Made by a program: the position numbers and the translations under genes
Part shown: piece by piece, positions 14,035 to 62,523 of the stretch
How the letters are laid out: each line of letters starts with the position of its first letter
Numbering within the stretch: position 1 is the first letter of the stretch
Assembly (NCBI GenBank): GCA_963744655.1
Contig: CAVUUJ010000002.1
Span: forward strand, 1,277,864 to 1,341,863
Direction: 5' to 3'
DNA from: an uncultured bacterium
GTDB taxonomy: Bacteria > Verrucomicrobiota > Kiritimatiellia > PWTM01
Length of the DNA: 64,000 nucleotides
Notes under the pieces: generated by a model
The model's database searches: none
The model's input: the letters and a program-made list of their open reading frames with translations, nothing else
What the model was told of the DNA's origin: nothing

Positions 14035-14185
14035 AACATCCTCCCCGGCGGACTGCGCCCGCTCTCCGCCCCGCCGTCCCCGAACGGGACGCGGCGGGCG
14101 GCACGGACCCTACTACGCGGCCCGCGGCCGGGCAAGGGGCGACGGCGGCGGCTGCGGCCGGGCCGGCGGAGGGTCGGACCGTGGG

Positions 14186-21050: not shown

Positions 21051-21628
21051 TCCTCATCCATGCGTTACGCGGACAATGGGGGCTGAAATGGCCCTTGGAG
21101 CGTTTCTGAGGGCGGGTTCCGGCGTCTCCAAGGCGGTTTGACCGAGAAGGCGCCCGGGGCGGCCGGGCTCGACAGGCTGCTCTCCTTCACCTGCCCACGT
21201 ACGGAAGAGGCGGGCAGGGCGTTCGGCGCCATTCCGGCAGCGGGGTGCCGCCGTGGCCGGGAAGGTCAGGTCTCTCGGATTCCGCCCTTCGCAGGAGCGT
21301 CGCGTTCCGGGCCGCGGCGGCCCGGGTCCGGTGAGCCCGTCGGACCCGGGCACCGGGTGCGGCCGGTCCCCTTCGCCCGCCGTATCGTGCCCCCCGTTCC
21401 GCGCGGCGCCGGCCGCTGCCGGCCGCGGACCCGCAACACCGGGGCCGGCGGCTTTCGGCCCGGGGGCGGTCGGTGGTTGACGTGACCCGCGGGCCGGTGT
21501 TCTGCTTCGCCCGCACGGAGACGGAGACGCGGGGGAGGGCGGGCCTCCCCGGCGAGGCGTGGATCCGGGCCCGGGTGACCCGGCAGGCGCCTCACCTCGC
21601 GCCGATGTGCACAACAGGAGATCGTCCC

Positions 21629-24600
21629 ATGGCTCTTCGCACCGCGCTTTCCGCCCTGCTCTCCCTGCTCCTCGCCGGCCCCCTGTTCGCGGCCCGGGAA
21701 GGCGAGTACTTCAGGGAAGACCGCAACCTGGGGCAGGTGGACAGGGGGGTCGACCGGATCGAAGGCCTCCTGTTCTGGCTCAAGAGCGATGCGGGCGTGG
21801 AAGTGGACGAGCAGGGCCATGTCGTCGCCTGGACGGACGCGTCCGGCCGCGGGCATGTCTTCGAGGCCCTCCCCGGGGCCGCCCACCCCGCCAGGCTGAC
21901 CCCGGGGGTCGTCCGTGGCCGGCCCGCGCTGACCTTCACGGCCGCCCAGCACAAGCCGGGCGGGCTGGTCAACCGGGAGATCGGTATCGACCCGGCCAAG
22001 GGGCTCTCGCTGGTCCTGCTTGCGCGCGTCGCGGGCATGGATCGCCACGCGTTCCTCGTCGTCTACGGCGACCAGTACAGGACCAAGGGCTCCCTCGGCA
22101 TCGGCTCGACGGGTTACGAGACGTACGGCAAGAGCTGGTGGCGGGTCGTGGCGGACTCGGAGGAGCTCTTCAAGTCCACGGACGACAACATCGCCGGCAA
22201 GGGCTTCGTGCTCTTCGTGGCCGCCTACGATCCGGGCACGAAGACCCTGACCGCCTACCAGGACGGTGTGCAGGTCGGACAACGGGAGTGCGACCTTGCC
22301 CTGGCGCCCGGGCACCCCTTCGGCATCGGCGCGGAACCCCGCGGTCAATGGTCCTTCGGCGGCGAGGTGCTCGAAGCGCTTGCCTACAACCATGCCATGG
22401 ATCGGGACGAGGTGCGGGCTCTCACCCGGGCCATCCTGTCCCGGCATGGTCTCGGGGGCGCGCCCGTGAGTTCCATGGCCCCGCTCCTGCCCTTCGCCTA
22501 CTACCCCTCCAGGAACCAGATGGAGGTGGCCGTGGAGCTGAGCCCGGACCTGCTGCGGAAGGCGGGCACCACGCCCGGGGAGGTCCGGGTTCGCGTGCGC
22601 GACGCCGGGACCCGGGCGGTCGTCGCCACGGGCACGGTGCCGCTCGACGCCCAGGCCCGGGGCCAGGCGCTGTTCGACGTGCCGGACTTACCCGACGGCG
22701 AGTACGCCGTGGAGTACGTCATCGGAAGGCACGTCGAGATCTCGCCCAAGACCTTCCGGCGCATACATTTCCCCTTCGAGACCTCGTCCCTCGGCGAGGA
22801 ACACGAGGTCTACCCCCCGTTCACACCCGTCGAGGTCGAGGGCGCGTCCGTGTCCGTGGTGGGCCGCACCTACACCCTGAACGCCTTCGGTCTCTTCGAC
22901 CAGGTCACCAGCCTCGGCCGCCCCCTCCTGGCCGGCCCCATCGCCCTTCACGGCCGGACCGGGGCCGGCCCGATCCGGTGGCAGCCGGGCGCGCTGGAGG
23001 GCAAGCGCGTCCACGACGACGAGGCGCTCTTCCACGCGGCCTGCGCGGGCTCGGGGGTGCGGGTCCGAACCCGGACCGTGATCCAGGAGGACGGGTGCGC
23101 CCGCATCGACATGATCCTCAAGCCCGGCGCGGACCGGGCCGAGATCGAGCGGCTCGTGCTGGAGATTCCCTTCCGGGACCGCGAGGCCCCCCTGTTTCAC
23201 TACGTCGCGGACAACGGCATGCGCTTCAACTACGCGGGCCGCACCCCGCGGGGCGGCACGATCGAGTGGTACAGCGAGCCGTGGGACGGCTGGGTGCCCA
23301 TCCGGTGGCGCGTCAGGCAGCCCGGCCCGGACGACGGCGTGATCTGGACCGGCGCGCATCCGCGCCAGCACGGCAACACCCAGCGCTGGGATCACCGGCC
23401 GTTCGCGCCCTATATCTGGCTCGGCGCGGAGCAGCGGGGGCTGGCCTTCTTCATGGAGAGCGAACGGGGCTTCGAGACCGACTACCGCACGCCGGTGCAA
23501 CAGCTGATCCGCCGGGGCGACGAGGTGATCCTGCGCGTGGAGATCTTCCAGCGGCCCGTGACCCTCACGCGTCCCCGCCGTCTGACCTTCGGCCTCATGG
23601 CCAGTCCGGGCAAACCGATGGAGGAGCGGTTCCGCACCCGGACCCTGGCCTCGGGCATAGGACCCGTGTCCTGCTGGGGGGGCTGGCAGTGTTCGAGCAA
23701 GTACCCGGACCACCGCGACTGGACCCTCGTGGACCGGATCCAGGAGATCCGCAGGCGGGGCGAGTACACGGAAGCGGACCAGCAGTGGTTCGAAGCCAAG
23801 GCCGAGGACGTCCGGGCGCGCTGGCCCGAGCGCAAGATCAACGGCAGTTCCGACTGGCTCTGGCTCACCACCCTCTTCGCCCGCCGCGCGGCGGAAAAGG
23901 GGGCCGGGCATTCCGGCACTTACTTCGAGGAGCACGCCACCGATCCGCTCCTGCCCGAATGGCAGGTCTTCCAGGACGAGTGGGCCAGTTCCGAGTTCAA
24001 CCGCTTCCGCGAGCGCAGCGCCAACTGGGGCGTCTTCTCGCCGAGTTACCACGATTTCGCGCTCTACATGGCCAACGAGTGGATGCGGCGCGGGGTGAGC
24101 CTCTACTTCGACAACACGAACCCCAAGCGGTGCTACAACGAACGCTTCGGCCCCGCGTTCCGCGGCCCCGACGGCGCCCTGCGCTACGGCATCAGCCTCT
24201 TCGGCCAGCGCCGCTACTACCGGCGCGTGTACAAGCTGCTGAGCAAGTGGAACGAGAAGGGCGCCCCGTACCCGGTCGACTTCACCCTGCACATCACCAA
24301 TACGCAGACGCTTCCGTTCAACACGTGGGCGACCGCCACCCTGGACCTCGAGCAGCGAGCGCACACGCTCAACCCGGAGTTCTTCCCGCCGGAGACCGAG
24401 ATGACCGTGGCCGAACTCACGGCGGGCAGGGGCCGGATCGTCACCGAGCGCGCCCGGGAGCGCCACGCGGCCCGGGAGGAGAAGGCCCGTCGCGCCGGGT
24501 ACCAGCTGCCCTGGCCGCCGGACTACACGCGCACCGTCACCTTCGGCCGCCAGGTCGGAGCCATCCCCCTGGCGCTCGACTTCGTCAGCGGCCACAGCCG

Positions 24601-25141
24601 GCACCATGGCCCCGACTACACGCCGGCGATGGTGCTGCGCAACTGGGCCATGCGCCGCCTTCACGACATCCGCGCGGGGGCCCTGTACTACAAGAGCGCC
24701 GCCCGGGCCCGGGACTACGAGGCCCTCCTGCTCGGCTTCGGGTACGGCGACGCCGACCGGGTGGCGGAGAGCAACTACTGGGAGCCGGACCCCGCCGTCC
24801 GGGTTGGCGACCCCCGCATCAAGTGGATGGCCCTGACCCGGCGCGACCCCGGCGCGGACCCCTTCGGCCTCCTGCTGCTGCAGAGCTACACCCGTGCCGA
24901 CGCGGTGACCGCGCAGGTGACCCTCCCGGGGGCCGCGGCCCTGGTGGACGTGGAAACCCGCGAGCGCATCGCGGTGGCCGGGGACCGGGCCGCCGTGACC
25001 ATGCCCGCCAATTTCTCGACGCGCATGTTCCTCGCGGTCCGGGATCCCGAACGGGCGGCGAGCCTGGCCCGGTCCCAAGGCATACGGGTGGAGGACCTGG
25101 CGCCGCCCCCTGTCCCGGGGTCGGCCGACGGATCGCCCTGA
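21629..25141 (+). CDS. giant-paralog family member B (N-terminal LamG/concanavalin-like module)
   Basis: Start MALRTALSALLSLLLAGPLFA (ATG 21629, CAGGAG RBS 8 nt upstream). LamG-like block: FWLKSDAGVEVDEQGHVVAWTD...FVLFVAAYDPGTKTLTAYQDGVQVG...FGGEVLEALAYNHAMDRDEV. Family motifs FPFETSSLG..VYPPFTPV, LTFGLMASPGKP and SLYFDNTNP. Confidence 0.8.
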   Translation: MALRTALSALLSLLLAGPLFAAREGEYFREDRNLGQVDRGVDRIEGLLFWLKSDAGVEVDEQGHVVAWTDASGRGHVFEALPGAAHPARLTPGVVRGRPALTFTAAQHKPGGLVNREIGIDPAKGLSLVLLARVAGMDRHAFLVVYGDQYRTKGSLGIGSTGYETYGKSWWRVVADSEELFKSTDDNIAGKGFVLFVAAYDPGTKTLTAYQDGVQVGQRECDLALAPGHPFGIGAEPRGQWSFGGEVLEALAYNHAMDRDEVRALTRAILSRHGLGGAPVSSMAPLLPFAYYPSRNQMEVAVELSPDLLRKAGTTPGEVRVRVRDAGTRAVVATGTVPLDAQARGQALFDVPDLPDGEYAVEYVIGRHVEISPKTFRRIHFPFETSSLGEEHEVYPPFTPVEVEGASVSVVGRTYTLNAFGLFDQVTSLGRPLLAGPIALHGRTGAGPIRWQPGALEGKRVHDDEALFHAACAGSGVRVRTRTVIQEDGCARIDMILKPGADRAEIERLVLEIPFRDREAPLFHYVADNGMRFNYAGRTPRGGTIEWYSEPWDGWVPIRWRVRQPGPDDGVIWTGAHPRQHGNTQRWDHRPFAPYIWLGAEQRGLAFFMESERGFETDYRTPVQQLIRRGDEVILRVEIFQRPVTLTRPRRLTFGLMASPGKPMEERFRTRTLASGIGPVSCWGGWQCSSKYPDHRDWTLVDRIQEIRRRGEYTEADQQWFEAKAEDVRARWPERKINGSSDWLWLTTLFARRAAEKGAGHSGTYFEEHATDPLLPEWQVFQDEWASSEFNRFRERSANWGVFSPSYHDFALYMANEWMRRGVSLYFDNTNPKRCYNERFGPAFRGPDGALRYGISLFGQRRYYRRVYKLLSKWNEKGAPYPVDFTLHITNTQTLPFNTWATATLDLEQRAHTLNPEFFPPETEMTVAELTAGRGRIVTERARERHAAREEKARRAGYQLPWPPDYTRTVTFGRQVGAIPLALDFVSGHSRHHGPDYTPAMVLRNWAMRRLHDIRAGALYYKSAARARDYEALLLGFGYGDADRVAESNYWEPDPAVRVGDPRIKWMALTRRDPGADPFGLLLLQSYTRADAVTAQVTLPGAAALVDVETRERIAVAGDRAAVTMPANFSTRMFLAVRDPERAASLARSQGIRVEDLAPPPVPGSADGSP

Positions 25142-25194
25142 ACGCGCCGGGGCCGACCGGCGCGTCCCCCTGGCGCCGGAGAAAGGATGTGTGC

Positions 25195-26268
25195 ATGAAC
25201 GTCGCCGAACGCTACCTGGCTTTCATGAGGTACGAGACGGTGGACCGGCCGCCGCTCGTCCTGCCCGGCGGGATCTTTCCGGTGACCCGGCGGCGCTGGG
25301 AGCGGGAAGGGCTGCCCGCGGGGGTCGACCTCAACGAGTTCTTCGGCGGCGAGCCCATGCCCGTCCGGCCGCTGGCCCTCGACACCCTGCTCCGCCCGCC
25401 CTTCGAGGAAGAGATCCTGGAGGAAACCGGCGAGTTCGTCGTGAAGATCGACCAGCACGGCGTGAAGTGCCGGAACTTCAAGGACGAGACCTCGATGTCC
25501 GAGCATCTCGAGTATCCGGTCAAGGGACCGGAGGACCTGGCCTGGCTGCGCCGGCGTCTCGACCCCGCCGCGCCCGGCCGCATCGCGCCCGACTGGCTTG
25601 AACGGGCGCGGGAGAGCCGGGCGCGCGGGGTGCTGACACAGATCAACGGCGGCATGTACTTCGCCTTCCTCAACGAGCACATGGGCACGGAGGCGGCCCT
25701 CGTGGCCTACTTCGACACCCCCGAACTCGTTCACGAGGTCAACGAGCTGCAGTGCCGCCTCTGCGAGCAGGCCATGAACACGGCGCTGCCCCGCTTCAAG
25801 CCCGACCGCATCGGCTACCACGAGGACATGGCCTACAAGAACGGCAGCATGATCTCGCCGGCCATGTTCCGCGAGTTCATGACGCCCTACTACAAGCGGG
25901 TGACGTCGATCACCTCGCGGCATGGCCTCGACCATCACCTGATGGACAGCGACGGCGATATCCGCGAGCTCATCCCGCTCTGGCTCGAGTGCGGGATCAA
26001 CGCCTTCGCCCCGCTCGAAGTGGCCGCCGGCATGGACGTCGTGGCGCTGCGCGAGGAATACGGCCCGGCGATCAGGATGGAGGGCGGGTTCGACAAGCGC
26101 ATCCTCGCCTCGGACAAGCCCTCCATCCGGCGCGAGTTCGAGCGGCTGGCGCCGGTAATCGACGGCGGCGGCTACCTGCTCAGTTGCGACCACACCGTGC
26201 CGCACAACGTGCCGCTGGAGAACTACGCCTACCTCGTGGAACTGATGAAGGTCCATTTCGGCATGTGA
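25195..26268 (+). CDS. URO-D-superfamily protein, DSDGD subtype
   Basis: ATG 25195 with a GGAGAAAGGA RBS. Motifs YKNGSMISPAMFREFMTPYYKRVTSI, HHLMDSDGDIRELIPLWLECGINAFAPLE and LLSCDHTVPHNV. Confidence 0.8.
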   Translation: MNVAERYLAFMRYETVDRPPLVLPGGIFPVTRRRWEREGLPAGVDLNEFFGGEPMPVRPLALDTLLRPPFEEEILEETGEFVVKIDQHGVKCRNFKDETSMSEHLEYPVKGPEDLAWLRRRLDPAAPGRIAPDWLERARESRARGVLTQINGGMYFAFLNEHMGTEAALVAYFDTPELVHEVNELQCRLCEQAMNTALPRFKPDRIGYHEDMAYKNGSMISPAMFREFMTPYYKRVTSITSRHGLDHHLMDSDGDIRELIPLWLECGINAFAPLEVAAGMDVVALREEYGPAIRMEGGFDKRILASDKPSIRREFERLAPVIDGGGYLLSCDHTVPHNVPLENYAYLVELMKVHFGM

Positions 26269-34290: not shown

Positions 34291-35843
34291 AGAAGGCGCC
34301 GGGCTGGGCCGTGAGACTGGGAGGGATCGCCATGCTGGCTCTTTCCGTTGCGCGCGGGGAAGACGGGCTCCGGCTTCCGAGCGTCTTCTCCGAGGGCATG
34401 GTTCTGCAGCGGGACCTGCCGGTCCCGGTCTGGGGCGAGGCCCGTCCGGGCGCACGGGTGACGGTGCGGTTGTACGACCACGGGCGGCTGCTGGCCGACG
34501 CGTCCGCTACGGCGCGCGCGGACGACGGGGCCTGGCGCGTCGATCTCCCGCCGCAGCCGGCGGGCGGACGGTTCTCGCTGCTCGTCGAGAGCCGCCCGGC
34601 CGGCGCGGACGGGCGGGTCGCGCGGCGGCTTTTCACGAACGTGCTGATCGGCGAGGTGTGGATCCTGTGCGGCCAGTCCAACGCGCTTTTCGCGATGAAC
34701 GGGTGCGCGGAGCGGGAGGACGCGCTTGCCCGGCTCCGGGACTACCCGCTGATTCGCGTCTTCCAGCTCGGCGGCCGGGAGGACGTCCTCGAGGCGCGGG
34801 CGCCCCGGACGGACACGCAAGGGTACTGGGGACCGGCCAAGTGGGAAGAGGCCGCCTACACCGTGCCGCGGTCGAGCGAGACGGACGTGCCCGGCTCCTC
34901 GTCCGCCGTGAGCTACTTCTTCGCCCGGGCCCTCGCCCGGTGGCTGGGCCCCGGCGTGCCGGTGGGCATGATCGAGATCGGGGCCATCCTCCCCGTCGAA
35001 AGCTGGGTCGACGACCGGACCCTGGAGGGGGTCCCCGCCTTGCGCGGGCTGCGGGGCAAGGACTACCCCCACGCCACCGGGCGCGCGTTCAACGCCCTCA
35101 TCGCGCCGCTGGCCCCGTACGCTGTACGCGGCGCCGCCTACTACCAGGGCGAGATGAACGCCGGCCGTCCGGCAGACTACTACCACGGGCTGAAGGCCCT
35201 CGTCGCCGGCTGGCGCCGGGCGTGGGACCGCCCGGATCTGCCCTTCCTGCTCGTGCAGCTGCCGGGCTTCATCGAGCACCTCGCCGGGAAGACGGATCTG
35301 GACATGAACGCCGAGCAGTTGGCCCGCTTCGACGGCCGGAACGCCGATCACCCGTTCTGCCGCATTCGCGAGGCCCAGCGGCGGGTCAGCCGCGAGGTGC
35401 CCGGCGTCGGGCTGGCGGTGACGATCGACACGGGCGAGCGCTTCGACATCCATCCGCCGCGCAAGCGCGCCGCGGGCGAGCGCCTGGCGCTGCAGGCCCG
35501 CAAGGTGGCGTACGGCGACGGGACGGCGGCGGCCGACGGGCCGCGGCCCCGCGCCTTCCGGCGCGAGGGCGGGGCGTACCTCGTCGCCTTCGACGGCGTC
35601 GGCGGCGGCCTGCGGGCCAGGGGCAGGCTGGACGGGTTCGAACTGCGCGACGCGGACGGCGCGTGGCACCCCGCCCCCGCGCGAATCCGCGGCGACACGG
35701 TGGAAGTCCGGGCCGAGGCCGCGGCCGCGCCCACCGGTGTGCGCTACGCCTGGGCCGGGTATCCCCCGACGCCGCTCTACAACGCCGAGGGATTGCCCGC
35801 GACGCCCTTCCACGAACCGCCTGTCGCCTTCGACGTCCCCTGA
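34287..35843 (+). CDS. sialate O-acetylesterase-like (SASA/DUF303-type) carbohydrate esterase, secreted
   Basis: Signal peptide MKKAPGWAVRLGGIAMLALSVARG. Motifs LPSVFSEGMVLQRD, GEVWILCGQSNALFAM, RGAAYYQGEMN, FLLVQLPGF and VRYAWAGYP. Confidence 0.8.
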   Translation: MKKAPGWAVRLGGIAMLALSVARGEDGLRLPSVFSEGMVLQRDLPVPVWGEARPGARVTVRLYDHGRLLADASATARADDGAWRVDLPPQPAGGRFSLLVESRPAGADGRVARRLFTNVLIGEVWILCGQSNALFAMNGCAEREDALARLRDYPLIRVFQLGGREDVLEARAPRTDTQGYWGPAKWEEAAYTVPRSSETDVPGSSSAVSYFFARALARWLGPGVPVGMIEIGAILPVESWVDDRTLEGVPALRGLRGKDYPHATGRAFNALIAPLAPYAVRGAAYYQGEMNAGRPADYYHGLKALVAGWRRAWDRPDLPFLLVQLPGFIEHLAGKTDLDMNAEQLARFDGRNADHPFCRIREAQRRVSREVPGVGLAVTIDTGERFDIHPPRKRAAGERLALQARKVAYGDGTAAADGPRPRAFRREGGAYLVAFDGVGGGLRARGRLDGFELRDADGAWHPAPARIRGDTVEVRAEAAAAPTGVRYAWAGYPPTPLYNAEGLPATPFHEPPVAFDVP

Positions 35844-36119
35844 ACGCGTGAACTCAACGGCGGCACTCCGTCCGCTGAAGGAACTTGTTCGAATCTCTTC
35901 TCTCCCGCAAGGCCGCCAAAATCGCCGAGGTTTTCCTGTTCAGGCAGGCCGTTGACCGTGCGTGCGATGCCACGTTTCATCATGTCCTCACCGAAGTTCA
36001 GCAGGTAACCGAGCTTCAAGCCGGTGAGCTTCACATAGGTCAAGAGCCGCTTCTCGTGGGCCTCGGTGATCCGCTCAACGGACTTCAATCCGGCGCTCGA
36101 TTCAGAAAGAAATGACCGG

Positions 36120-36148
36120 TTGACGTTGTAACGTTGTAGCGCTATGCG
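36120..36148 (+). promoter_or_regulatory. candidate TA promoter TTGACG-N17-TATGCG overlapping the tandem 8-mer ACGTTGTA ACGTTGTA (36123-36138; possible antitoxin operator)
   Basis: Read directly. A GGGAGG RBS at 36160-36165 precedes ATG 36172. Confidence 0.4.
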
Positions 36149-36171
36149 GTTGTCGTGAAGGGAGGTAAGAC

Positions 36172-36594
36172 ATGAGCATCCTGACGAAACGCGCAACGGT
36201 CTATCTTGACCCGGTTCTGCACAAAGCGCTTCGCCTGCAGTCCGTCGAGACCTCACGGTCCGTTTCCGAACTGATCAACGACGCCGTTCGGGACGAACTC
36301 GCCGAAGATGCTCGCGACCTCGCCCAGTTTGATGAGCGAGTGAAGGAGACCACCGTTGACTTCGAGGACTTCGTGAAGAGTCTGCAGCGCGATGGCACGA
36401 TATGGAGTCATCGTCCGCAAGTCCGTCGCAAAGGACATGAGGGGCATCCCGAGGAAGGATGCCCGGCGCCTTGTTGCAGCCATCAAGTCCCTTGCGGACG
36501 ATCCTCGCCCGCCAGGTGCCAAGAAGCTCTCCGGTCAGGAGCGGTACCGTCTCAGGCAGGGGAAGTGCCGAATCCTGTACGAAGTCCGGCATGA
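36172..36594 (+). CDS. ribbon-helix-helix (CopG/RelB-like) antitoxin; the ORF is abnormally extended over the toxin gene
   Basis: MSILTKRATVYLDPVLHKALRLQSVETSRSVSELINDAVRDELAEDARDLAQFDERV... The first ~78 aa look like an antitoxin. The remaining ~60 aa are an out-of-frame overlap with the RelE gene. Confidence 0.65.
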   Translation: MSILTKRATVYLDPVLHKALRLQSVETSRSVSELINDAVRDELAEDARDLAQFDERVKETTVDFEDFVKSLQRDGTIWSHRPQVRRKGHEGHPEEGCPAPCCSHQVPCGRSSPARCQEALRSGAVPSQAGEVPNPVRSPA

Positions 36595-36649
36595 CAGGCT
36601 GATCGTCTGCGTCGTCCGAGCCGGAGGCCGCCGCGACGTCTACCGATGA
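36392..36649 (+). CDS. relE: RelE/ParE-family type II toxin
   Basis: 85 aa: MARYGVIVRKSVAKDMRGIPRKDARRLVAAIKSLADDPRPPGAKKLSGQERYRLRQGKCRILYEVRHDRLIVCVVRAGGRRDVYR. This is a canonical RelE/StbE-like pattern. Confidence 0.85.
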   Translation: MARYGVIVRKSVAKDMRGIPRKDARRLVAAIKSLADDPRPPGAKKLSGQERYRLRQGKCRILYEVRHDRLIVCVVRAGGRRDVYR

Positions 36650-36970
36650 GATAATCGAACAGGGCCCATGGACGGCACGGCGTACAGCCGCCCGTCATGG
36701 CCGGCGATCACCTTGCTCTGGACAACCGTATCGGCCCGGAAGCCTTCGACGAAACGCACGCCCCGGCACACCATGGCCACCGGCACTTGGCGTTCCGCGC
36801 TGAACCCTCGCTTCCGGATCTCATCCGGAAGGACGACTTTGTGGACCGTCTCCAGCCGTTCCGGACCAGGTTCGAGATGAACCGCCATAGCAGCGTCCAC
36901 GATTTTCCGGCTCTTTCGCGAATGCTGTGGGTTGCAGCTTGATTCCGGGCGTCTTGTGTCGCCACGGCGG

Positions 36971-37429: not shown

Positions 37430-39673
37430 TTACCGCGTGTGCGGGCAAGCCAGGACGCAGGCCTCGAAGGCGCAGGGGCGGGCCCGTTCGATGGCCGGAA
37501 GCTTGCGCAGCGCTTCCTCCAGCGCTTCGGCGGTCACGTCCTCCGGCGGGCGGACGTCCAGTTGCCAGCCGAGCAGCCCCGGGCCCTCCTCCGCCACGAG
37601 CCCGTGGCGCTTCGACCAGTCGCACCGAACGCGTTCGATCGGGTGGAAGGTCTCGGTCGCGCTTCCCACCGCCACCGTGACGGGCTCGCGGAACGCCCCG
37701 ACCGGGCACACCTCAAGGCAGCGCGAGCAGCCTTCGCAGTCCGGGCGCACGGCGTCGTCCGCCGGTCCCGACACCGGCAGGGGCGCGTCGGTCACGATGC
37801 TGACCGTGCGGAGGTTCGAGCCGTGAACGGGGTGCACCACGTGCCCGCAGCGGCCGAGGCGGCCGAGGCCCGCCGCCACGGCGGCGAAACGGTTGCAGAA
37901 CCAGTCCGGCTGCGTGCCGCGGGAGTTGGCGGTCCCCGACCCGGTGCCCAGCAGGTCGTGGGAGACCCACGCGCGGTGGCCCGCCGCCTCGAGGCGGGCC
38001 GCGACGCGCCACGCCGCCAGCAGCAGCAGCACCTGCGATTCGTACTCGGCCAGGCTCAGCGGGCCGGGCGCCTCGGCCGGGGGCCGCCCGGTACAGGCCA
38101 CGGACTCACGGGGGAGCGGCAGGCCGAGGACGAGGACCGACGCGGCGCCGGGCCAGCGTTCCCCGGGCCCGCGGACGTCCACGGCCTGCTCCGTCACCGC
38201 CGGGTCCATCGGCAGGAACCGGTTCTCGAAGCCTTGCCGGTCCCGGGCCGCCAGGTCCCGCTGGCCGGCCCAGTGCGGCCGGAGCTGCGCGGCCACGTCG
38301 TCGAGGACGCCCGCCGAGGCGACGCCCGAGAGGAAACCCTCGGCGACGCGGTCCGCCTCGCGGCGGAGGTCCTCCAGCCCGGCCCGGACCCGCGCGGGGG
38401 CCGGCAGGCGGGCGGCGGTCGGCTCCAGCGGGGCGGTCGTCAGCACCGTCTGCGTCAGGATCGGCACCCCGGCCTCGATCTCCGCCGCGAACCGCGCCTC
38501 GTCGTGGTCGGTCTCGCAGATCGCGTCGTGGCCGTTCCGTTCCAGCTCGCGGGTGATGTCGTAGGCCGCCTGCGCCAGGATGCGCCCCGCCATCTCGTCC
38601 CGCCGCGGCATCGGCGTCCCGGGCAGGCGCAGGACCACGGTCACGCCGCGGACCGCCCCGGGCAGGTGCGCGTCCATCTCGCCGGCCGCGAGCGGGACGA
38701 CCGCGAGGCCGTCCGCTCCGCGGCCCTCGGCCAGGCCGGCGAGCCGCCACGCGATCGCGCGGCCGGGCGGGGTCTCGCCCGGCACGACGTCGCGCCGGCG
38801 GCGCGGCGCGTCGGTGTAGGCCGGGTCCCGGTACCGGCGCGCCGCGGGGAGGCAGTAGCGGAGGCAGCTTCCCATCTCGCCGCCGCGGAGGCCGTGCCGC
38901 GCGCGGGCCTCCTCGATCGTCTCCGGCGTCACCGTCTCGGGTAGGTCCAGGTCCAGGTCCAGGTCGAAGTGCTCGCCCCAGGCGCAGCGCCAGAGGTTCT
39001 TGCGCGCGTAGCGGTAGACCTTGTCCTCGATCCGGACCTCGTTCCAGCCGTCGACCTCCTTCGAGAGCGCCCCGCTCATGCAGTGTTTGCGGCACAGCAT
39101 GCAGTGGTCGCACACGCTCCCGGGCTCCAGCAGCGGTGTCGGGGTCAGCGCCGCGTCGGTGAGGACCGTGATCCAGCGGTTGCGCGCGCCGAACTCCGGG
39201 GAGATCGCGAGGCCGCTGAAGCCGAACTCCGCCAGCCCGGCCGCCACCGCCGCGTGCATGTGGGAGAGGTCCGGCGCGAAGACCTCCGGCATCTCCTTGT
39301 ACGACCGGTAGCGCCAGCTATTCGAACTGAAGACCGCCACCGCCTCGTGCCCGAGCGACTGCAGGTGGTTGGCGAGCCGGAAGCTCATCTCGTCCAGCCG
39401 CTGGTTCATCCGGTACTGCACGCGGTAGGGGCCGATCTCCTGCGGGTGCGTCCTGCCGCCGAGCTCGATGCAGGCGTCCGGATGGTGCACGGCCATCACG
39501 ACGACGCTGCGCGCCGAGGGCATGATGCCGGCGGGGCTCATGCGGGGCGGCGCGTGCAGGAACCGCTCCACGTTGGCGATGCCGCACAGGTCCGCGCGGA
39601 GCGTCTCCAGGGCGTAGCGCCGAAGGCAGGTCGAGGCCGGGGTCTCGATGGCGGGTTTCTCGGGCATCTTCAT
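37430..39673 (-). CDS. tandem (two-module) QueG/reductive-dehalogenase-like 4Fe-4S protein
   Basis: Start MKMPEKP (ATG 39673, 7 nt after AGGAG; alternative start 39679). Module 1: SHMHAAVAAGLAEFGFSGLAISPEFGARNRWITVLTDAAL...CDHCMLCRKHCMSGAL. Module 2: NRFAAVAAGLGRLGRCGHVVHPVHGSNLRTVSIVTDAPL...CEGCSRCLEVCPVGAF...CAFEACVLACP. The upstream 400 aa of the track ORF are shadow. Confidence 0.7.
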   Translation of the reverse strand: MKMPEKPAIETPASTCLRRYALETLRADLCGIANVERFLHAPPRMSPAGIMPSARSVVVMAVHHPDACIELGGRTHPQEIGPYRVQYRMNQRLDEMSFRLANHLQSLGHEAVAVFSSNSWRYRSYKEMPEVFAPDLSHMHAAVAAGLAEFGFSGLAISPEFGARNRWITVLTDAALTPTPLLEPGSVCDHCMLCRKHCMSGALSKEVDGWNEVRIEDKVYRYARKNLWRCAWGEHFDLDLDLDLPETVTPETIEEARARHGLRGGEMGSCLRYCLPAARRYRDPAYTDAPRRRRDVVPGETPPGRAIAWRLAGLAEGRGADGLAVVPLAAGEMDAHLPGAVRGVTVVLRLPGTPMPRRDEMAGRILAQAAYDITRELERNGHDAICETDHDEARFAAEIEAGVPILTQTVLTTAPLEPTAARLPAPARVRAGLEDLRREADRVAEGFLSGVASAGVLDDVAAQLRPHWAGQRDLAARDRQGFENRFLPMDPAVTEQAVDVRGPGERWPGAASVLVLGLPLPRESVACTGRPPAEAPGPLSLAEYESQVLLLLAAWRVAARLEAAGHRAWVSHDLLGTGSGTANSRGTQPDWFCNRFAAVAAGLGRLGRCGHVVHPVHGSNLRTVSIVTDAPLPVSGPADDAVRPDCEGCSRCLEVCPVGAFREPVTVAVGSATETFHPIERVRCDWSKRHGLVAEEGPGLLGWQLDVRPPEDVTAEALEEALRKLPAIERARPCAFEACVLACPHTR

Positions 39674-39735
39674 CTCCATGCTCCTTTCCGTGCAGACGCG
39701 CGCCATCCTACCGCGGGCTGGACCCGCGCCGCGAA

Positions 39736-40527
39736 ATGCGTATGTTATTCCACTATGCGGAATACGGAGCCGTTTGTCGGGCAAGGGGCAGGGCGGTGAG
39801 CCAGGTGCTGCAGCGGGCCACCCGGCTGCTCGAGGCGCTTGCCCGCCGGCCGGTCTCGCCCCTCGGGCCGCTCGCGCGGCAGGCGCGGATCCCCGCGTCG
39901 ACCGCGGTGCGGCTGCTGCAGGCGCTGGCGGCGCTCGACTGGGTCGAGCAGGTCCGGCCCCGGGGGCCCTACCGCCTCGGGCCGCGCAGCTGGATGCTGA
40001 CCGAACGGTACAACGCCGTGGAGCCCCTGCTGCGGCGGACCCGGCCGCTGCTGGCCACCCTGGCGGCCGAACTGCGCCAGCCGTTCGTCCTGGTCCGCCT
40101 GAGCAACGGGCGGCGCCAGGTGCTCCAGCTGCGGGCTCCGCGCGGGGCGGCGCCCGCCGTGCTGGCACGGACCGAGGGGCACCTCTACGAGACGCCCACC
40201 GGCCGCCTGCTGCTCGCCCACGAGCCCGCCCGGAACCGCAAGCGGCTGCTGGACCGGCTGGGCCTGCCGGCGCCGGAGGTGTGGCGCGGCATCGCGGATC
40301 GCGACGAGCTGGAGGCGGAGCTGCGGGAGCTGCGCCGCGAGGGCTACATCGCGGAGGAGACGGCCCGCTGGCACCACCATGCGGCGTGGATCGGCCGATG
40401 GAACGGCGAGGGCGCCTGCATCGGCACCTTCGCGCCGCCGGGCCGGCTGCACCCGGACACCGGGCCCCGGCTGCGTGCCGCCCGGGAGGCGGTGCGCCGG
40501 CCCGCCCGCCCCCGGCAGGCGTCCTGA
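39736..40527 (+). CDS. IclR-family transcriptional regulator
   Basis: VLQRATRLLEALARRPVSPLGPLARQARIPASTAVRLLQALAALDWVEQ (winged HTH) plus an effector domain. The more likely start is GTG 39796. Divergent from the QueG-like gene. Confidence 0.7.
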   Translation: MRMLFHYAEYGAVCRARGRAVSQVLQRATRLLEALARRPVSPLGPLARQARIPASTAVRLLQALAALDWVEQVRPRGPYRLGPRSWMLTERYNAVEPLLRRTRPLLATLAAELRQPFVLVRLSNGRRQVLQLRAPRGAAPAVLARTEGHLYETPTGRLLLAHEPARNRKRLLDRLGLPAPEVWRGIADRDELEAELRELRREGYIAEETARWHHHAAWIGRWNGEGACIGTFAPPGRLHPDTGPRLRAAREAVRRPARPRQAS

Positions 40528-54471: not shown

Positions 54472-57400
54472 TCAGCGGACCCGCAGGAAGCGCGCCTGGT
54501 GCGGGGCCATCGGCAGGAGCACCGCGCCGTCCTCCGGCGCGAAGTCCTCCTCGGCGGCCACGTCGCGGACCCCGGCGGCAGGCCGGCCGAGCAGGGCGTC
54601 GCCCAGCGCGAGGCGCACGCGCAGCGGCGTCTCCGTCGGGTTGACGACCGCGAGGGCGGCGAGGCCGCTGCCCGCGTGGGCGAAGCCGCCGGCGAGCACG
54701 CGGGCGTCCGAGACCTCCACGAGCCCGCCGGGGTTCCAGTAGCGCACGTGGCGGAGGGCGGGGTCGGCGAGGGGCAGTTCCCGCACGAGCGCGCGGGCGC
54801 GGCCGCCCGGCACCGACAGCCAGTCCCCGGGCGGGCTGCCGACGGGCATGTCGTGCAGCAGGCCGTAGGCGTAGGCCAGGAGGCAGGCTTGGTCCTCCGC
54901 CTCGTTGAGCCGGTCCGCTTCCGCGGTGGGCATGTGCGAGGCCACCATGCCCATGCCGCCCATCGAGACCGTGTAGCCGGCGAAGCGGTCGGGGGTCAGG
55001 CCCTGGTCGATCCAGTCGTCGCCCGCGCGGCGGTGGTACATCGGGCCCTCGACGAACCAGGTGGGGCCGTAGCTGTTCTCGTGGTTGTTGCTCTGCAGCA
55101 GGGCGGGGGGCTTGCCGGAAAGCCACAGGGCGGTGGCGTAGCGGCGGGCGCGCTCCCGGTAGCGGAGCATGGGAGTGAAGGATCGCAGCGCGCCGTCGTC
55201 GCGCCGGTAGGCGCCGCCGGTGAGGTCGCTCCGGAAGACGCCGGCGAACGCGCGCGGATGGGGCTCGTAGCAGTCGAAGAAGCAACCGTTGGCCCCCGTG
55301 GCGTCGCTGATGCGCATCATGTACCAGAGCCAGGCGTCGACGAAGCTGTCGTTCATGACGGAGTAGAACACCGTGAGCTGTTCGGGCCGAATCCAGTAGG
55401 CCGTCCCGCCGTAGTTCGTCCAGCGCGCGAAGTCGGAATCCGGGCGGCGGGTCTCCAGGGTGCGCGAGGAATGCGTCCAGCCGCTGCCGAAGGTGGGGAA
55501 CTCCCGCATCGCGCAGCTCGCGGCGAAGGTGCACCCGTAGAGGGTCAGCGGGTAGCCTTGCTGGAAGCGCTCGAGGCGGACGCGGTAGCGCGAGTTGTGC
55601 CCCGGGGGGGCGTCTTCGGGCCTGAAGTAGTGCGGCGCGTAGCCGTCGCTCTCCCGCAGGAAACGGCGCAGGCCCTCGAGGCCCTCGGCGGTGTCGAGCT
55701 GGAAGCCGTTGACCCCGTCGCCGTAGTAGCGGTAGCCGGCGGTGTCGTGCGAGCGCAGGCCCTGCCAGAAGGCCTGCCGGTAGCCGGCGGCTTTCGGGCG
55801 CGTGGGCGTGGCCGCCAGGGCGAAGTCGATCGTGCGCGGGCGGTCGAGCCGCGTCGGCCGCGCGAACAGGCGCAGGCGCAGGGCCAGTTCGCCGTTCTCG
55901 CGCACGAGCAGGACCTGGTCCTCGCCGTCGGGCACGTTCCAGCCGCGGTCGCTCTCGTTGATCCAGAAGAGGCCGTGGTCGAAGTCGCCCGCGAAGATCA
56001 GCGGCACGAAGTGGCCCGTGAAGGCGGGGTGGGGCTGCAGGTCCGACCCGCGGGCGAGGACGCCCTCGCCCGCCGGGATGGCCCCGAGGCCCTCGATCTC
56101 CGTGAGCCGGCCGAACCGGTAGATCGAGGCGGAGGGGTTGACGGGCACGGTGAGGGTGAGCGCGTCGACGGTGACGGGTTCCGGCGCGTCGAGCGTGAGC
56201 CGCACGCGGTAGTAGCCGTCGTAGTCCAGCCGCCCCTCGACCGCGGCGCGCACGGGGCCGAGCCGAGCGGCGGCGCGGACGTCGGCGGCGAAGCCGTCGG
56301 TCGGCTCCAGTTCGAAGTCGCGCCCGGCGACGGGGCAGGCGTTCGTGGCCAGCTCGTAGCGATCGAACCCCGCGGGGAAGCGGGTCCCGGGCATGCGCTT
56401 GAGGGTGAGGGGGCCTTCGCCGACGGCCCCGACGCGCCGGCCGTCCACGACGGCTTCCAGCCGCACGGGGCCGCCGAGCACGTCCTCGCCCTGCGAGACG
56501 AGGGCGGCGGGCAGGCCGGCGGGCCCGAACCGGTAGGTCCGGCCCCACACGCGCAGCGAGGCGTCGTCGGGGCCGGGCTCCACCGGCGTCCAGGGCGGCA
56601 GGACGACGGCGTCCCGCCCGAGGGTGTTGCGCTCCCACGGGAAGTGTTCCCGGACGAACGGGAGGACGGCCGCGCCGGAGGGCCCGTCCTCCGCGGCCAC
56701 CGCGAGGTCCAGCCGGTACGTGCCGTCGGGCAGGGGATCGGGGAGTTGCAGAAGCACGCGGCCCTCGCTGTTGCTCACGGCGCCCGCGCCTTCGGCGAGC
56801 ACGCGGCCGGCGGCGTCGAGCGCCCGGGCGGTGAGCCGGTCGGCCCGGGTGATCCGCCGGGCTTTCTCGAGGTTCTCGCCGGTGTAGAGCTGCAGGTTGA
56901 GGCGGGTGCTCACGCGCGCCTCGACGCGTTCCGTGTACGGGTCGTAGACGTAGTCGAACGGGACGCTGATCTCCGGTTCCCGGTAGTGCAGCTCGCGCCA
57001 GCGGGCGTGGGCCGCGGCGACGTCGGCCCGGCCGGGCGTGTAGGGCAGTTCGTGGCGGAAGAGCGGGACCTCGCGCCCGGGCAGGCCGGCGGTCAGTTCG
57101 ACGCTCAGCGTGTTCGGGACGCCCGCGGCCGGCTCGACGCCGGACGTTGCCCGCCACTCGAGGCCCCGCTTCGCCTGGCCGGAGCCGTTCCAGGTCCGGT
57201 CCCACGTCGTGCGGCCGCCGGCGGTGTTGGCGAAGCGCGCGGTGAAGGAGGCCGGGGCGTCGGCCTCGCCGGTCAGCAGCAGGCCTCTGAGGTCCGCGTG
57301 GAGCGAGCCCGAGGGCTGGAGCAGGCGCGGGTAGCTGCCGTTCAGCTGGAAGGTTGCGGGCGCCTCCGGGTCGAAGAGGACGGCCGGCATCCGGTCCCAC

Positions 57401-58095
57401 CCGTCCGCCCCGGCGCCGCCCCAGCTCAGGTAGTGCGGATCGGTCGACCACGCGAGGTGCAGCTTCGCCTCGCGCCCGTCGAGCGGGGCCCCGTCGAGCA
57501 GGTCCAGGGGGATGCGCCACTCCACCTGCCACCACAGGCCGGGCACGTGCGCCACGCCGACGTAGTTCCCGACGGCGATGCGGCCGGGGTCGACGGGCAG
57601 GTTCTGCCCGGGGAGCGCCTGCATGCGGTAGGCCCACAGGGCGCCGTTGGGGTTGAGGGCCAGGCGCAGGTAGGGGACGCCGGGCGTGCCGACGCGGGGG
57701 TCGAGCGCCACCTGGACGACGAGGTGGTCGTCGTCGAAGACGGCCGGGTCGTTGGGTTCCGTCGCGCGGGCGACGAAGTGTTCGCCCGCGGGCTCGAGCT
57801 GGACCATGGTGGCCAGGTACAGCGCCGCGTCGTCGTAGGTGATCCACCAGCTCGCGTCGCGGCCGACGGCGGGCGCGCCGGGCAGCCGCGTGTCGCGCAG
57901 GCCGCAGAAGGCGGAGGCGCGGCTCCAGCCGAAGCCCTTGAACGGGCCGCCGGTGCAGTGGGGGGGCACGCCGCGGACGGGCGCGACCCGGACCCAGGGC
58001 GCATCGGGCCCCCCGGGTTCCGGGGCGGCGTGCGCGAACGGGGCGAGGAGAAGGGCGAGGGCCGCCGGGAGGAGTCGTCGCAGGTGCATGGTCAT
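54472..58095 (-). CDS. giant-paralog family member D (secreted)
   Basis: 1,207-aa intact ORF. Signal peptide MTMHLRRLLPAALALLLAPFAHA. Motifs HFPWERNTLG..VLPPWTPV, VWGRTYRFGPAGLPAALVSQG, IDFALAATPTRP and GANGCFFDCYEP. Confidence 0.8.
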   Translation of the reverse strand: MTMHLRRLLPAALALLLAPFAHAAPEPGGPDAPWVRVAPVRGVPPHCTGGPFKGFGWSRASAFCGLRDTRLPGAPAVGRDASWWITYDDAALYLATMVQLEPAGEHFVARATEPNDPAVFDDDHLVVQVALDPRVGTPGVPYLRLALNPNGALWAYRMQALPGQNLPVDPGRIAVGNYVGVAHVPGLWWQVEWRIPLDLLDGAPLDGREAKLHLAWSTDPHYLSWGGAGADGWDRMPAVLFDPEAPATFQLNGSYPRLLQPSGSLHADLRGLLLTGEADAPASFTARFANTAGGRTTWDRTWNGSGQAKRGLEWRATSGVEPAAGVPNTLSVELTAGLPGREVPLFRHELPYTPGRADVAAAHARWRELHYREPEISVPFDYVYDPYTERVEARVSTRLNLQLYTGENLEKARRITRADRLTARALDAAGRVLAEGAGAVSNSEGRVLLQLPDPLPDGTYRLDLAVAAEDGPSGAAVLPFVREHFPWERNTLGRDAVVLPPWTPVEPGPDDASLRVWGRTYRFGPAGLPAALVSQGEDVLGGPVRLEAVVDGRRVGAVGEGPLTLKRMPGTRFPAGFDRYELATNACPVAGRDFELEPTDGFAADVRAAARLGPVRAAVEGRLDYDGYYRVRLTLDAPEPVTVDALTLTVPVNPSASIYRFGRLTEIEGLGAIPAGEGVLARGSDLQPHPAFTGHFVPLIFAGDFDHGLFWINESDRGWNVPDGEDQVLLVRENGELALRLRLFARPTRLDRPRTIDFALAATPTRPKAAGYRQAFWQGLRSHDTAGYRYYGDGVNGFQLDTAEGLEGLRRFLRESDGYAPHYFRPEDAPPGHNSRYRVRLERFQQGYPLTLYGCTFAASCAMREFPTFGSGWTHSSRTLETRRPDSDFARWTNYGGTAYWIRPEQLTVFYSVMNDSFVDAWLWYMMRISDATGANGCFFDCYEPHPRAFAGVFRSDLTGGAYRRDDGALRSFTPMLRYRERARRYATALWLSGKPPALLQSNNHENSYGPTWFVEGPMYHRRAGDDWIDQGLTPDRFAGYTVSMGGMGMVASHMPTAEADRLNEAEDQACLLAYAYGLLHDMPVGSPPGDWLSVPGGRARALVRELPLADPALRHVRYWNPGGLVEVSDARVLAGGFAHAGSGLAALAVVNPTETPLRVRLALGDALLGRPAAGVRDVAAEEDFAPEDGAVLLPMAPHQARFLRVR

Positions 58096-58108
58096 CCTTT
58101 CTGCCGGG

Positions 58109-61681: not shown

Positions 61682-61749
61682 CTTCCGTCTCCTCCACTTC
61701 CCGTCGTGGTTCCCGCGCGCCGCGCGCGGCCGTCGCCCCGTCCCGGCGG

Positions 61750-62523
61750 TCACGGCCCGTAGCGCTCCGCGAAGCGGCCCGCCGTCTCCGCCGTGAAGTA
61801 CCGGGCGCCGGGGTCGTCGCCGGCCCCGTCCGTCAGCGGCGCGGCGTCGAGCCAGGCCCCTTCGAGAACGGTGGTCCGGAGCAGGGCCGCCAGGTCCTCG
61901 CGCGCCGGGAGGCCGATCGCGTACAGCGCCGGGCCGCCGCCCTTTTCGGGGAGCTCGCCCTGTTCCAGTCTCGTGGGCAGGCCGACCAGCGAGACCACCG
62001 CGTCCGCGCGGCCCGCGGCGCGGGCCAGCAGGGCGCGCGCGTCCGCGCCGGTCCACCACAGGCCGCAGTCCACCGGCATCATCGAGGACGTCGCGCGGCG
62101 GCTGCGGAAGGCGGAGGCGGGCAGGCGGGCGAGGCCCTCGCTCACCTCGGGGTCGAGGGGAATGCCCTCGCGCTCCACCACGAGGCCGGCCGACGCGAGC
62201 GCCCGCTCGAGGCGCGACGCCAGTCCCGCCACGCGGCTGCCGACGCCCGCGCCGGTGTCCTCCGGCAGCGTCCAGATCGTGACGCGGCCGCCGGGGTGGC
62301 GCCGCCCCACGTCTTCGGCCACGGCGTCGATCGCCGCGTCGCGCCAGTCGGCGGCCAGCCGGTCGCCCGGCGCGGGCGGCCGGTGCGCGGCGCGGCCCAG
62401 CGCGAGCAGGCAGGCGAGGACCGCGAGACCTGCCGACGCGGGCCCCGCGTGGCGCACGCCGCGGCGTCCGAGCCACGCGAAGGCGACGGTGCCGAGAACC
62501 AACAGCACGATCCATCCGATCAT
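61750..62523 (-). CDS. membrane-anchored hypothetical protein
   Basis: Start MIGWIVLLVLGTVAFAWLG (ATG 62523, GGGAGGGAG RBS). Two N-terminal hydrophobic helices followed by a ~200-aa soluble domain. No family recognised. Confidence 0.6.
   Translation of the reverse strand: MIGWIVLLVLGTVAFAWLGRRGVRHAGPASAGLAVLACLLALGRAAHRPPAPGDRLAADWRDAAIDAVAEDVGRRHPGGRVTIWTLPEDTGAGVGSRVAGLASRLERALASAGLVVEREGIPLDPEVSEGLARLPASAFRSRRATSSMMPVDCGLWWTGADARALLARAAGRADAVVSLVGLPTRLEQGELPEKGGGPALYAIGLPAREDLAALLRTTVLEGAWLDAAPLTDGAGDDPGARYFTAETAGRFAERYGP

Follow-up and report, generated by a model that had tools for sequence, protein, structure and literature searches.

Does a protein that carries two copies of the reductive dehalogenase (RdhA)/QueG core in a single chain belong to either of these families, or does it represent something else? 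According to PMC4646009 and the abstract of PMC7585037, class III cobalamin enzymes consist of the reductive dehalogenases and QueG alone. The gene that raises the question lies in a 64,000-nt stretch of contig CAVUUJ010000002.1 from an uncultured bacterium of the Kiritimatiellia (the window, the whole stretch of DNA that was analysed). It spans 37430..39673 on the minus strand, encodes 747 aa and is divergent from an IclR-family regulator gene at 39796..40527 (+). An earlier reading of the bare sequence (the original prediction) had described it as two QueG/RdhA-like Fe-S modules fused in one protein. The explanation that best accounts for all the observations reported here is a soluble member of the class III corrinoid/[4Fe-4S] reductase superfamily that belongs to neither known functional family, to which we give slightly better than an even chance of being correct.

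The Tandem Gene Is Intact and Conserved Across Phyla

The extent of the gene was established from its translation, from full-length homologues and from AlphaFold2 and Foldseek results. The protein starts with MKMPEKP, an AAGGAG sequence is located 7 nt upstream of the start codon, and the stop codon occupies 37430-37432. The open reading frame (ORF) called mechanically on the minus strand extends upstream as far as 40891, because stop codons are rare at the GC content of the window (~73%). The peptide stretches quoted in the original prediction and both CxxCxxCxxxC motifs (C188-C198 and C646-C656) were all found in the translation.

A protein search in a space of 5.8 billion sequences gave 483 matches; the 120 that were listed all have lengths of 741-827 aa, align over 96-100% of the query and share 44-68% identity with it. 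In total, 161 full-length relatives were collected. Furthermore, a filter-free search with module 1 (the N-terminal half) against 1.84 billion representatives of 50% identity clusters retrieved 1356 representatives at E<=1e-3, 96 of them at E<=1e-30. These comprised ~65 full-length tandem representatives (725-836 aa), followed by a long tail of single-module proteins of ~290-370 aa. Among GTDB contigs taken as one genome per species, 291 stretches encode a relative. The locus counts given below rest on the best 80 of these 291 stretches, non-redundant and extended by 6 kb on either side: 42 come from Lentisphaerota (including Victivallis vadensis), 11 from Kiritimatiellia/Verrucomicrobiota, 10 from Armatimonadota and 9 from Planctomycetota, and Spirochaetes, Oscillospiraceae, Limnochordia and Sumerlaeota are also represented.

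This distribution over 291 species-level genomes and the full-length homologues established the tandem form as a genuine conserved architecture. The possibility that two genes had been joined by a sequencing or assembly error, which the original prediction had itself raised, was rejected: the 120 listed homologues and the ~65 cluster representatives are full length, and the chain is modelled as a single particle with high confidence (see below). The probability of such an artefact is, in our view, negligible. A full-text literature search, of incomplete coverage, found no description of the tandem family or of its single-module relatives.

Both Modules Belong to the RdhA/QueG Superfamily

The full-length AlphaFold2 model, built on an alignment of 38 sequences, reached a predicted local distance difference test score (pLDDT) of 90.6 and a predicted template modelling score (pTM) of 0.93, and showed one compact particle. 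When this model was compared with the PDB by Foldseek, 46 matches were listed at E<=1e-3, in the order NpRdhA (6e-11), PceA (1e-8) and then a membrane reductive dehalogenase (RDH) complex and QueG (5e-7). With module 1 alone, all 50 matches listed at the same threshold were RdhA, QueG, NpRdhA or MMACHC. Among the matches listed, the significant structural neighbours were all B12-binding proteins with a nitroreductase-like fold.

MMACHC itself was matched at 5e-4 by module 1 and at 4e-3 by the full model, just above the 1e-3 cut-off, and this fold match is the argument for a corrinoid-processing enzyme, namely a CblC/MMACHC-like decyanase or dealkylase with its own Fe-S electron supply. However, RdhA and QueG are matched three to seven orders of magnitude more strongly than MMACHC, the surroundings contain no cobalamin riboswitch and no btu or cob gene, and the IclR/AraC regulation and sugar-operon contexts described below do not fit such a role, which we regard as highly improbable.

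At the sequence level, the NCBIfam RDH model TIGR02486 matched two partial stretches of the protein (7e-26) with 91.8 bits, below its curated cut-off of 160.35, and the QueG model TIGR00276 matched with 49.5 bits (2.9e-13) against a cut-off of 200. The Pfam family PF08331 (DUF1730) scored 12.9 bits against 25.1, and the Pfam Dehalogenase domain PF13486 gave no match even at E<=1. The annotation of the tandem family is uninformative ("hypothetical protein" or, in JGI, "epoxyqueuosine reductase QueG") because Pfam sees only sub-threshold Fer4-type domains. HMMER and profile searches against PDB sequences matched both modules to PceA, NpRdhA and QueG; the core domain of module 2 aligned to PceA residues 281-350 with an E-value of 1.8e-7 by HMMER, and a profile search matched it to PceA at 1.1e-13.

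The protein has the RdhA-type layout: in each module, the nitroreductase-like core precedes a ferredoxin domain that carries two Cys motifs for clusters. The C-terminal HEAT-repeat tRNA-binding domain, a feature of QueG (PMC4646009), was not found: the chain ends four residues past the last Cys motif, and the model contains no helical repeats. Sequence profiles and predicted fold thus agree in placing both modules in the RdhA/QueG superfamily (class III B12/Fe-S), as had been proposed, and not in an unrelated ferredoxin family. The view that the protein is not a radical-SAM enzyme was likewise borne out, as there is neither a Radical_SAM Pfam match nor a CxxxCxxC motif. We consider the assignment of superfamily and architecture to be very well founded. 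Judged by its sequences, the tandem family forms, with single-module paralogues of ~300 aa, a separate and unnamed clade of the RdhA/QueG superfamily, not to be filed as RdhA or as QueG.

Two Complete Modules Flank a Degenerate Third Core

Internal duplication was evident when residues 1-304 were compared with residues 305-747 (BLASTP E=6e-16, 28% identity over 225 columns), and more strongly when family sub-alignments of residues 1-296 and 430-725 were compared by hhalign (E=5e-41). Module 1 starts with the nitroreductase-like alpha/beta core domain D1 (residues 1-182, 39128..39673, minus strand like all the domains), delimited by hhalign, invariant columns and HMMER alignments to PceA and QueG. 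D1 is followed by the ferredoxin domain Fd1 (residues 183-296, 38786..39127), delimited by invariant columns, hhalign and comparison with the single-module proteins. Module 2 consists of the core domain D3 (residues 426-640, 37754..38398), recognized by hhalign, by the HMMER and profile matches to PceA and by column statistics, and of the ferredoxin domain Fd2 (residues 641-747, 37433..37753), recognized by its Cys motifs. D1 and D3 aligned with an E-value of 2e-27, and Fd1 and Fd2 with 1.7e-15.

Between the two modules lies D2 (residues 297-425, 38399..38785), identified by its hhalign similarity to D1 (E=1.4e-12) and D3 (E=1.2e-12) and by its low conservation. It has no AGLG motif, no Cys motifs and no ferredoxin domain of its own, and only 2 of its columns are invariant in the 38-sequence alignment. 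The description as two QueG/RdhA-type modules in one protein therefore stood as far as the complete modules are concerned, but the core domains number three, one of them degenerate. On these alignments, one chain comprises two complete redox modules, each with a core and a two-cluster-motif ferredoxin domain, and a vestigial third core between them. The accompanying statement that the known enzymes are strictly single-module could not be maintained, since catabolic RdhAs already hold a vestigial copy of the core domain, which mimics the PceA dimer interface (PMC10463259). This vestigial same-chain duplicate, typical of the NpRdhA/BhbA type, is present in the tandem protein as D2.

The first Cys motif of each module reads C188-x2-C191-x2-C194-x3-C198 and C646-x2-C649-x2-C652-x3-C656, respectively. 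Fd2 contains a full set of eight Cys (C646, C649, C652, C656, C684, C734, C739 and C743), whereas Fd1 has seven invariant ones (C188, C191, C194, C198, C230, C270 and C274). The position of the relatives' eighth Cys is taken in Fd1 by M267/E266, so that M267-x2-C270-x3-C274 replaces the CxxCxxxC of the single-module proteins. This comparison suggests that one module 1 cluster may be a [3Fe-4S] cluster or may have a non-Cys ligand. The two modules also differ in conservation, with ~78 invariant columns in module 1 vs ~30 in module 2 (38 sequences). The motifs of D1 include HHPD (63-66) and SSNxWRY (116-122).

Modelled alone, module 1 reached a pLDDT of 65, vs >90 for the same residues in the full-length model. 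Residues 66-79, 117-128 and 227-296 were confident in the full-length model and fell below 50 in the isolated module. This difference may mean that the other domains stabilise the loops of the active site and the second half of Fd1, although the comparison is confounded by the shallower alignment available for the single module (14 vs 38 sequences).

The N-terminus of the reductase (MKMPEKPAIETPAST) carries no RR motif of a twin-arginine translocation (Tat) signal, and a membrane anchor is also absent. No adjacent rdhB membrane-anchor gene was found, and the 80 loci contain no conserved neighbour except the IclR gene. From the missing Tat motif and the absence of an RdhB-like or other conserved neighbour, the tandem reductase is predicted to be soluble, cytoplasmic and anchor-less.

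The Predicted Active-Site Signature Is Nearer to That of RdhA Than to That of QueG

According to PMC4646009, a single Tyr above the corrin is common to the class III enzymes (QueG Y101, PceA Y246), QueG D130 corresponds to PceA N272, and PceA R305, which partners the Tyr, has no equivalent in QueG. In HMMER alignments PceA R305 fell on R166 of module 1 and R622 of module 2, and the Asp of the "LSDR" motif of Bacillus subtilis QueG fell on H138 and N594; residue 168 of the QueG chain corresponds, we infer, to D134 if a 34-residue tag is assumed. The Tyr column was tentatively placed on Y83, at the start of a long helix. Column statistics over 161 tandem and 55 single-module proteins showed that the Arg is kept in 100% of modules 1, 94% of modules 2 and 95% of the single-module proteins. 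The second column contains His in 95% of modules 1, Asn in 92% of modules 2 and His in 67% of the single-module proteins, and the Tyr is found in 91, 85 and 64%, respectively. Module 2 of the window protein has Leu (L539) in the Tyr column, and its closest relatives also lack the Tyr there; D3 keeps N594 and R622. Y83, H138 and R166 are hence candidate active-site residues of module 1, and the predicted Tyr...Asn/His...Arg signature is nearer to RdhA than to QueG.

These columns bear directly on the possibility of a functional epoxyqueuosine reductase. Many homologues carry the name "epoxyqueuosine reductase QueG" in JGI, the TIGR00276 and DUF1730 models match weakly and the fold is QueG-like; indeed QueG (PDB 5D08 and 5D6S) shares the minimal layout of core and ferredoxin domain, is cytoplasmic and monomeric, and acts on a carbohydrate-like ring, an epoxy-dihydroxycyclopentyl group. 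On the other side, both QueG-type scores are far below their cut-offs, the protein ends at Fd2 without a HEAT-repeat domain, the QueG D-Y-H motif is absent (GPY instead), and the catalytic Asp (D130 in the St enzyme, D134 in the Bs enzyme) is replaced by H138/N594. The tandem protein has, moreover, the RdhA-type Arg that QueG lacks, and a dedicated IclR/AraC regulator and sugar-transporter operons are unfit for a housekeeping tRNA modification. An analogue of QueG is therefore very unlikely.

A stronger case can be made for a cytoplasmic (catabolic) reductive dehalogenase that acts on natural organohalides, the product then serving as a carbon source. RdhAs are the best matches in both sequence and fold. 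PceA of Sulfurospirillum multivorans (PDB 4UQU; RDH complex 8Q4H) has the same nitroreductase-like core followed by a two-motif ferredoxin domain, shares AGLG...P.FG...R, has R305 at the position of the tandem Arg and N272 at that of the module 2 Asn, and forms a homodimer whose arrangement the tandem chain could reproduce intramolecularly. NpRdhA (PDB 4RAS/6ZXX; BhbA type), the top match of the full model, is cytoplasmic and has a vestigial core like that of the tandem protein. Cytosolic rdhA-like genes have also been reported beside IclR/MarR regulators (PMC12219181).

The differences, however, are considerable. Unlike PceA, the tandem protein lacks a Tat signal, an RdhB anchor and a PF13486 match and stays below the TIGR02486 cut-off; it holds two modules and a dead core per chain, has a His at the Asn position and seven Cys in module 1, and is predicted to be a cytoplasmic, IclR-regulated protein of saccharolytic bacteria. 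NpRdhA has one active module and one dead core N-terminal to it, with a C-terminal reductase in some members; in the tandem chain both modules keep Fe-S ligands and active-site columns, the additional dead core D2 lies between two complete modules, a fused or adjacent reductase is absent, and sequence identity to NpRdhA is ~14-20%. In addition, the tandem family is conserved at 44-68% identity across phyla, typically as one copy, in saccharolytic bacteria of gut, sediment and groundwater, whereas RdhAs are variable and often multi-copy. The sugar-transporter operons of the relatives do not favour a dehalogenase either, and the many invariant polar or charged residues of module 1 suggest a polar substrate. 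We consider a dehalogenase unlikely, and prefer a class III reductase outside both known families.

An IclR Regulator Is the Conserved Partner of the Tandem Gene

The partner gene encodes an IclR-family regulator of 243 aa, identified by Pfam, NCBIfam and adjacent orthologues. Comparison with the orthologues placed its start at GTG 39796 (VSQVLQ...) and not at ATG 39736. The HTH_IclR domain of the window protein scored 35.9 bits (cut-off 22) and IclR_C 20.7 bits (cut-off 24); the orthologous partners carry precomputed PF01614 matches, and NCBIfam IclR-type models matched the window protein at 1e-13 to 1e-7. With the GTG start, the 122-bp divergent promoter region common to both genes has exactly the boundaries originally proposed, 39674..39795.

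In an all-against-all ORF clustering of the 80 loci, the IclR gene was the sole conserved neighbour, present in 43-44 of them. In most loci it precedes the tandem gene on the same strand, in some Victivallales it follows the tandem gene, and in the clade of the window it is divergent; because the orientation varies, it is the pairing that is conserved and not an operon structure. The same IclR subfamily also adjoins single-module relatives. A conserved operon partner other than IclR was looked for in the same clustering and rejected, as nothing occurred in more than 6 loci.

In six Victivallaceae/Lentisphaeria loci without IclR (L019, L023, L032, L036, L038 and L041), the conserved upstream neighbour is a gene for an AraC-family regulator; in L023, the one inspected, it is divergent and just upstream of the tandem gene. 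This suggests that AraC has replaced IclR as the regulator. Both regulator types are typical of substrate-inducible catabolic genes.

A search of the intergenic region for the IclR operator, which the original prediction had recommended, identified a candidate inverted repeat, TATTCC-ACTATGC-GGAATA, in an AT-rich patch at 39746..39764, at distances of 32 bp from the IclR start codon and 73 bp from that of the reductase, upstream of both. In 13 further loci, which belong to Planctomycetota, Phycisphaerae, Armatimonadota, Lentisphaerales and Sumerlaeota, the exact TTCC-N7-GGAA occurs in the 160 bp that precede the partner IclR gene; the consensus is TTCCAC-N3-RTGGAA. When 900 kb were scanned with a weight matrix, 25 of 43 matches fell in promoter regions, which make up 3.4% of the bases, and a site was present in 20/44 loci with IclR vs 1/37 without; the matrix was built from 14 of the scored sites, so that these figures are partly circular, but the imperfect sites of L012, L017, L054 and L073 do not depend on it. 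The pairing of reductase and regulator is thus real and evolutionarily conserved, with a conserved palindrome. Its position upstream of the IclR genes implies autoregulation and, in the window, predicts control of both divergent promoters. Scans around the gene gave no match to the sigma-70 promoter consensus and no intrinsic terminators.

Single-Module Relatives Point Toward Carbohydrate Metabolism

The single-module paralogues (~290-370 aa, annotated as "hypothetical protein" or "ferredoxin"; for instance L086 7001-7879 and L020 10056-11006) are 35-43% identical to module 1 and share with it the motifs FWRY, FSHxHAAVAAGLGEFG, RCAW and CxxCxxxC as well as the IclR subfamily. Unlike the tandem protein they have one module per chain, with the full eight-Cys complement, and their range is wider, extending into Bathyarchaeota and Deltaproteobacteria. 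They adjoin the tandem gene in 8 of the 80 loci. Two subtypes can be distinguished, of ~290-315 aa and of ~340-370 aa with an insertion, which often occur as adjacent pairs, as if forming heterodimers (L086 5889-7879; L089 12-1043 and 4537-7873; L020 10056-12124; L088 3913-7912). A plain fusion of the two subtypes as the origin of the tandem form was rejected, as both are nearer to module 1 than to module 2.

Single-module genes were seen in operons with sugar ABC transporters or with Gfo/Idh/MocA (GH109-like) genes, sometimes each with its own copy of the IclR subfamily. In L086/L087, a sugar-binding protein and two permeases are encoded together with single-module proteins of 346 and 292 aa, a Gfo/Idh/MocA protein, an AraA/FucI-like isomerase and a flavin adenine dinucleotide (FAD) oxidase. 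L089 comprises a single-module gene, a sugar ABC transporter (binding protein and two permeases), a tandem member of 787 aa and another single-module gene, and L088 has two divergent units, each in the order IclR subfamily, single-module gene and GH109-like Gfo/Idh/MocA gene. The Bathyarchaeota locus L085 combines a single-module gene with DUF6785, two URO-D genes and a GH2 gene. L091 has a divergent aldo-keto-reductase/Fer4 fusion and a sodium:solute symporter, and in L093 (10313-11803) there is a 4-bp overlap between the tandem gene and an SGSH-like sulfatase gene.

Single-module paralogues of Kiritimatiellia sit with GH20-like and HGSNAT-like genes, and downstream of the tandem gene in the Kiritimatiellia loci L020, L024, L029 and L039 there are GH20-like and HGSNAT-like genes and possibly GH89-like ones; the HGSNAT-like and GH89-like labels are what we take these genes to be from reading their sequences. 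The window is itself a glycan-degradation cluster with GH116, a SASA esterase, GH42, GH130, MGH1-like and GH123-like genes, at least 4 sulfatases and PEP-CTERM proteins. Together with the SGSH_C sulfatases of the window, the sulfatase, GH20-like and HGSNAT-like neighbours resemble a set for the degradation of heparan-type (glucosamine-containing) glycans. The link to carbohydrate catabolism, first drawn from the window, is therefore plausible in view of the sugar ABC-transporter and Gfo/Idh/MocA operons of the relatives. A carbohydrate-derived compound is our best guess for the substrate, with somewhat less than an even chance.

The link to MtaA-like URO-D paralogues, which the original prediction had also drawn, was not supported. 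A functional connection was rejected: the three URO-D copies of the window are 11-31 kb away from the reductase gene, and only 4 of the 80 other loci contain a URO-D gene at up to 6 kb from the tandem one. The window copies are located at 4752-7673 (-), 12901-14109 (-) and 25081-26268 (+); the first is a stop-free frame with a URO-D domain (residues 182-401) and an SGSH_C sulfatase (422-862), which could encode one fusion protein or comprise two genes that share the frame.

Two further features of the window were recorded. Large ORFs of 1000-1470 aa at 7818-10967 (-), 21335-25141 (+) and 54472-62515 (-) have weak GH123_N-like matches, some with Laminin_G_3, and may constitute an expanded uncharacterised family of glycoside hydrolases. 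A parDE-like cassette on the plus strand lies within 35777-36900, with a ribbon-helix-helix (RHH) antitoxin at ~36172-36400 and a ParE toxin at 36392-36649 (PF05016, 1e-7). It stands between the halves of a PDDEXK_3 (GxxExxY-type) gene on the minus strand, whose profile positions 8-72 match at 36640-36900 and 75-116 inside 35777-36256. The GC content of this region is 65.6%, poorer than its surroundings, and the cassette appears to have been inserted into the PDDEXK_3 gene.

Cofactor, Proposed Mechanism and Points Against It

Whether the cores bind a corrinoid is central to the proposed reaction. In the competing explanation, the protein would be a corrinoid-free Fe-S oxidoreductase or electron-transfer protein whose cores, like the vestigial domain of NpRdhA, would hold flavin or stay empty. 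The parent nitroreductase fold binds flavin mononucleotide (FMN), D2 is clearly degenerate, and Pfam recognizes only the sub-threshold Fer4 domains. Furthermore, the motif shared by RdhA and QueG (AGLG...G...P.FG...R plus CxxCxxCxxxC) mainly lines Fe-S cluster I and not the corrin (PMC4646009). Against this, all the significant structural neighbours listed bind B12, with no flavin nitroreductase among them, and D1 and D3 show some of their highest conservation in the columns whose RdhA and QueG counterparts face the corrin. We judge a corrinoid-free protein to be improbable, and corrinoid binding to be somewhat more probable than not.

Several further observations, like the cluster-lining position of the shared motif, weigh against a class III corrinoid reductase of a sugar-derived compound. 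The Tyr column is the weakest link, as it depends on a low-scoring alignment, in which PceA F244 falls on that column, and on the position at the start of the helix. Module 1 has seven Cys and not eight. No cobalamin or other riboswitch was found in the window or in 10 loci without IclR. After IclR the next real neighbour cluster is present in 6/80 loci only. Of the 80 other loci, 4 have a URO-D gene, 3 a sulfatase gene and 6 a Gfo/Idh/MocA gene within 6 kb of the tandem gene. The carbohydrate link depends on a handful of operons in genomes that are crowded with such genes anyway. No RNA runs with the reductase sequence were found, only DNA metagenomes from freshwater, marine and wetland sediment, and soil.

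With these points in mind, we propose the following working mechanism for the class III reductase that we favour. The chain would fold as a covalent intramolecular pseudo-dimer, by analogy with the PceA homodimer or with a catabolic RdhA in which a dead core acts as the second subunit, and D2 would be a structural pseudo-subunit. A low-potential donor, ferredoxin or flavodoxin, would reduce the outer cluster, and from there electrons would reach, via the inner cluster, a base-off corrinoid in D1 and probably also in D3. The resulting Co(I) would act on a small, cytoplasmic, sugar-derived metabolite by reductive cleavage or elimination, with protons supplied by the trio of Tyr, His or Asn, and Arg (Y83, H138 and R166 in module 1; N594 and R622 in module 2).

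Module 1 would be the main catalytic site, because it is far more conserved and module 2 has lost the Tyr here (L539). Module 2 could be a second site or, in this Tyr-less protein, an auxiliary or electron-entry module. Expression would be controlled by the adjacent autoregulated IclR protein through binding to TTCC-N7-GGAA in the shared promoter. The IclR effector would probably be the substrate or a pathway intermediate, and a carbohydrate-derived compound is suggested by the gene surroundings of close relatives.

Implications for Class III Cobalamin Enzymes

What is new in this locus is the architecture, with two live modules and a dead core, together with the clade and probably the reaction; the fold and the cofactor logic are known. 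It is possible, although we hold it doubtful, that the tandem family and its single-module paralogues form a third functional branch of class III B12 enzymes, in which saccharolytic anaerobes of the Planctomycetes-Verrucomicrobia-Chlamydiae (PVC) group, Armatimonadota and others would use a corrinoid/Fe-S reductase with two active sites on a carbohydrate-derived metabolite. If true, this would be the first role of class III enzymes in glycan catabolism, and the two modules would correspond to two successive reductions or to a split between catalysis and electron entry.

A conserved and widespread clade with its own regulator subfamily would widen the chemistry expected of this cofactor arrangement, and would offer a natural test case for the evolution of homodimeric redox enzymes into fused pseudo-dimers. 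The label "epoxyqueuosine reductase QueG" carried by many members would mislead predictions of queuosine and B12 dependence from metagenomes. The family should be of interest to B12/Fe-S enzymology and to the study of anaerobic glycan degradation, an interest tempered by the fact that cofactor content and substrate are inferred. For gut and sediment PVC bacteria, it would add a B12-dependent step to the anaerobic degradation of glycans.

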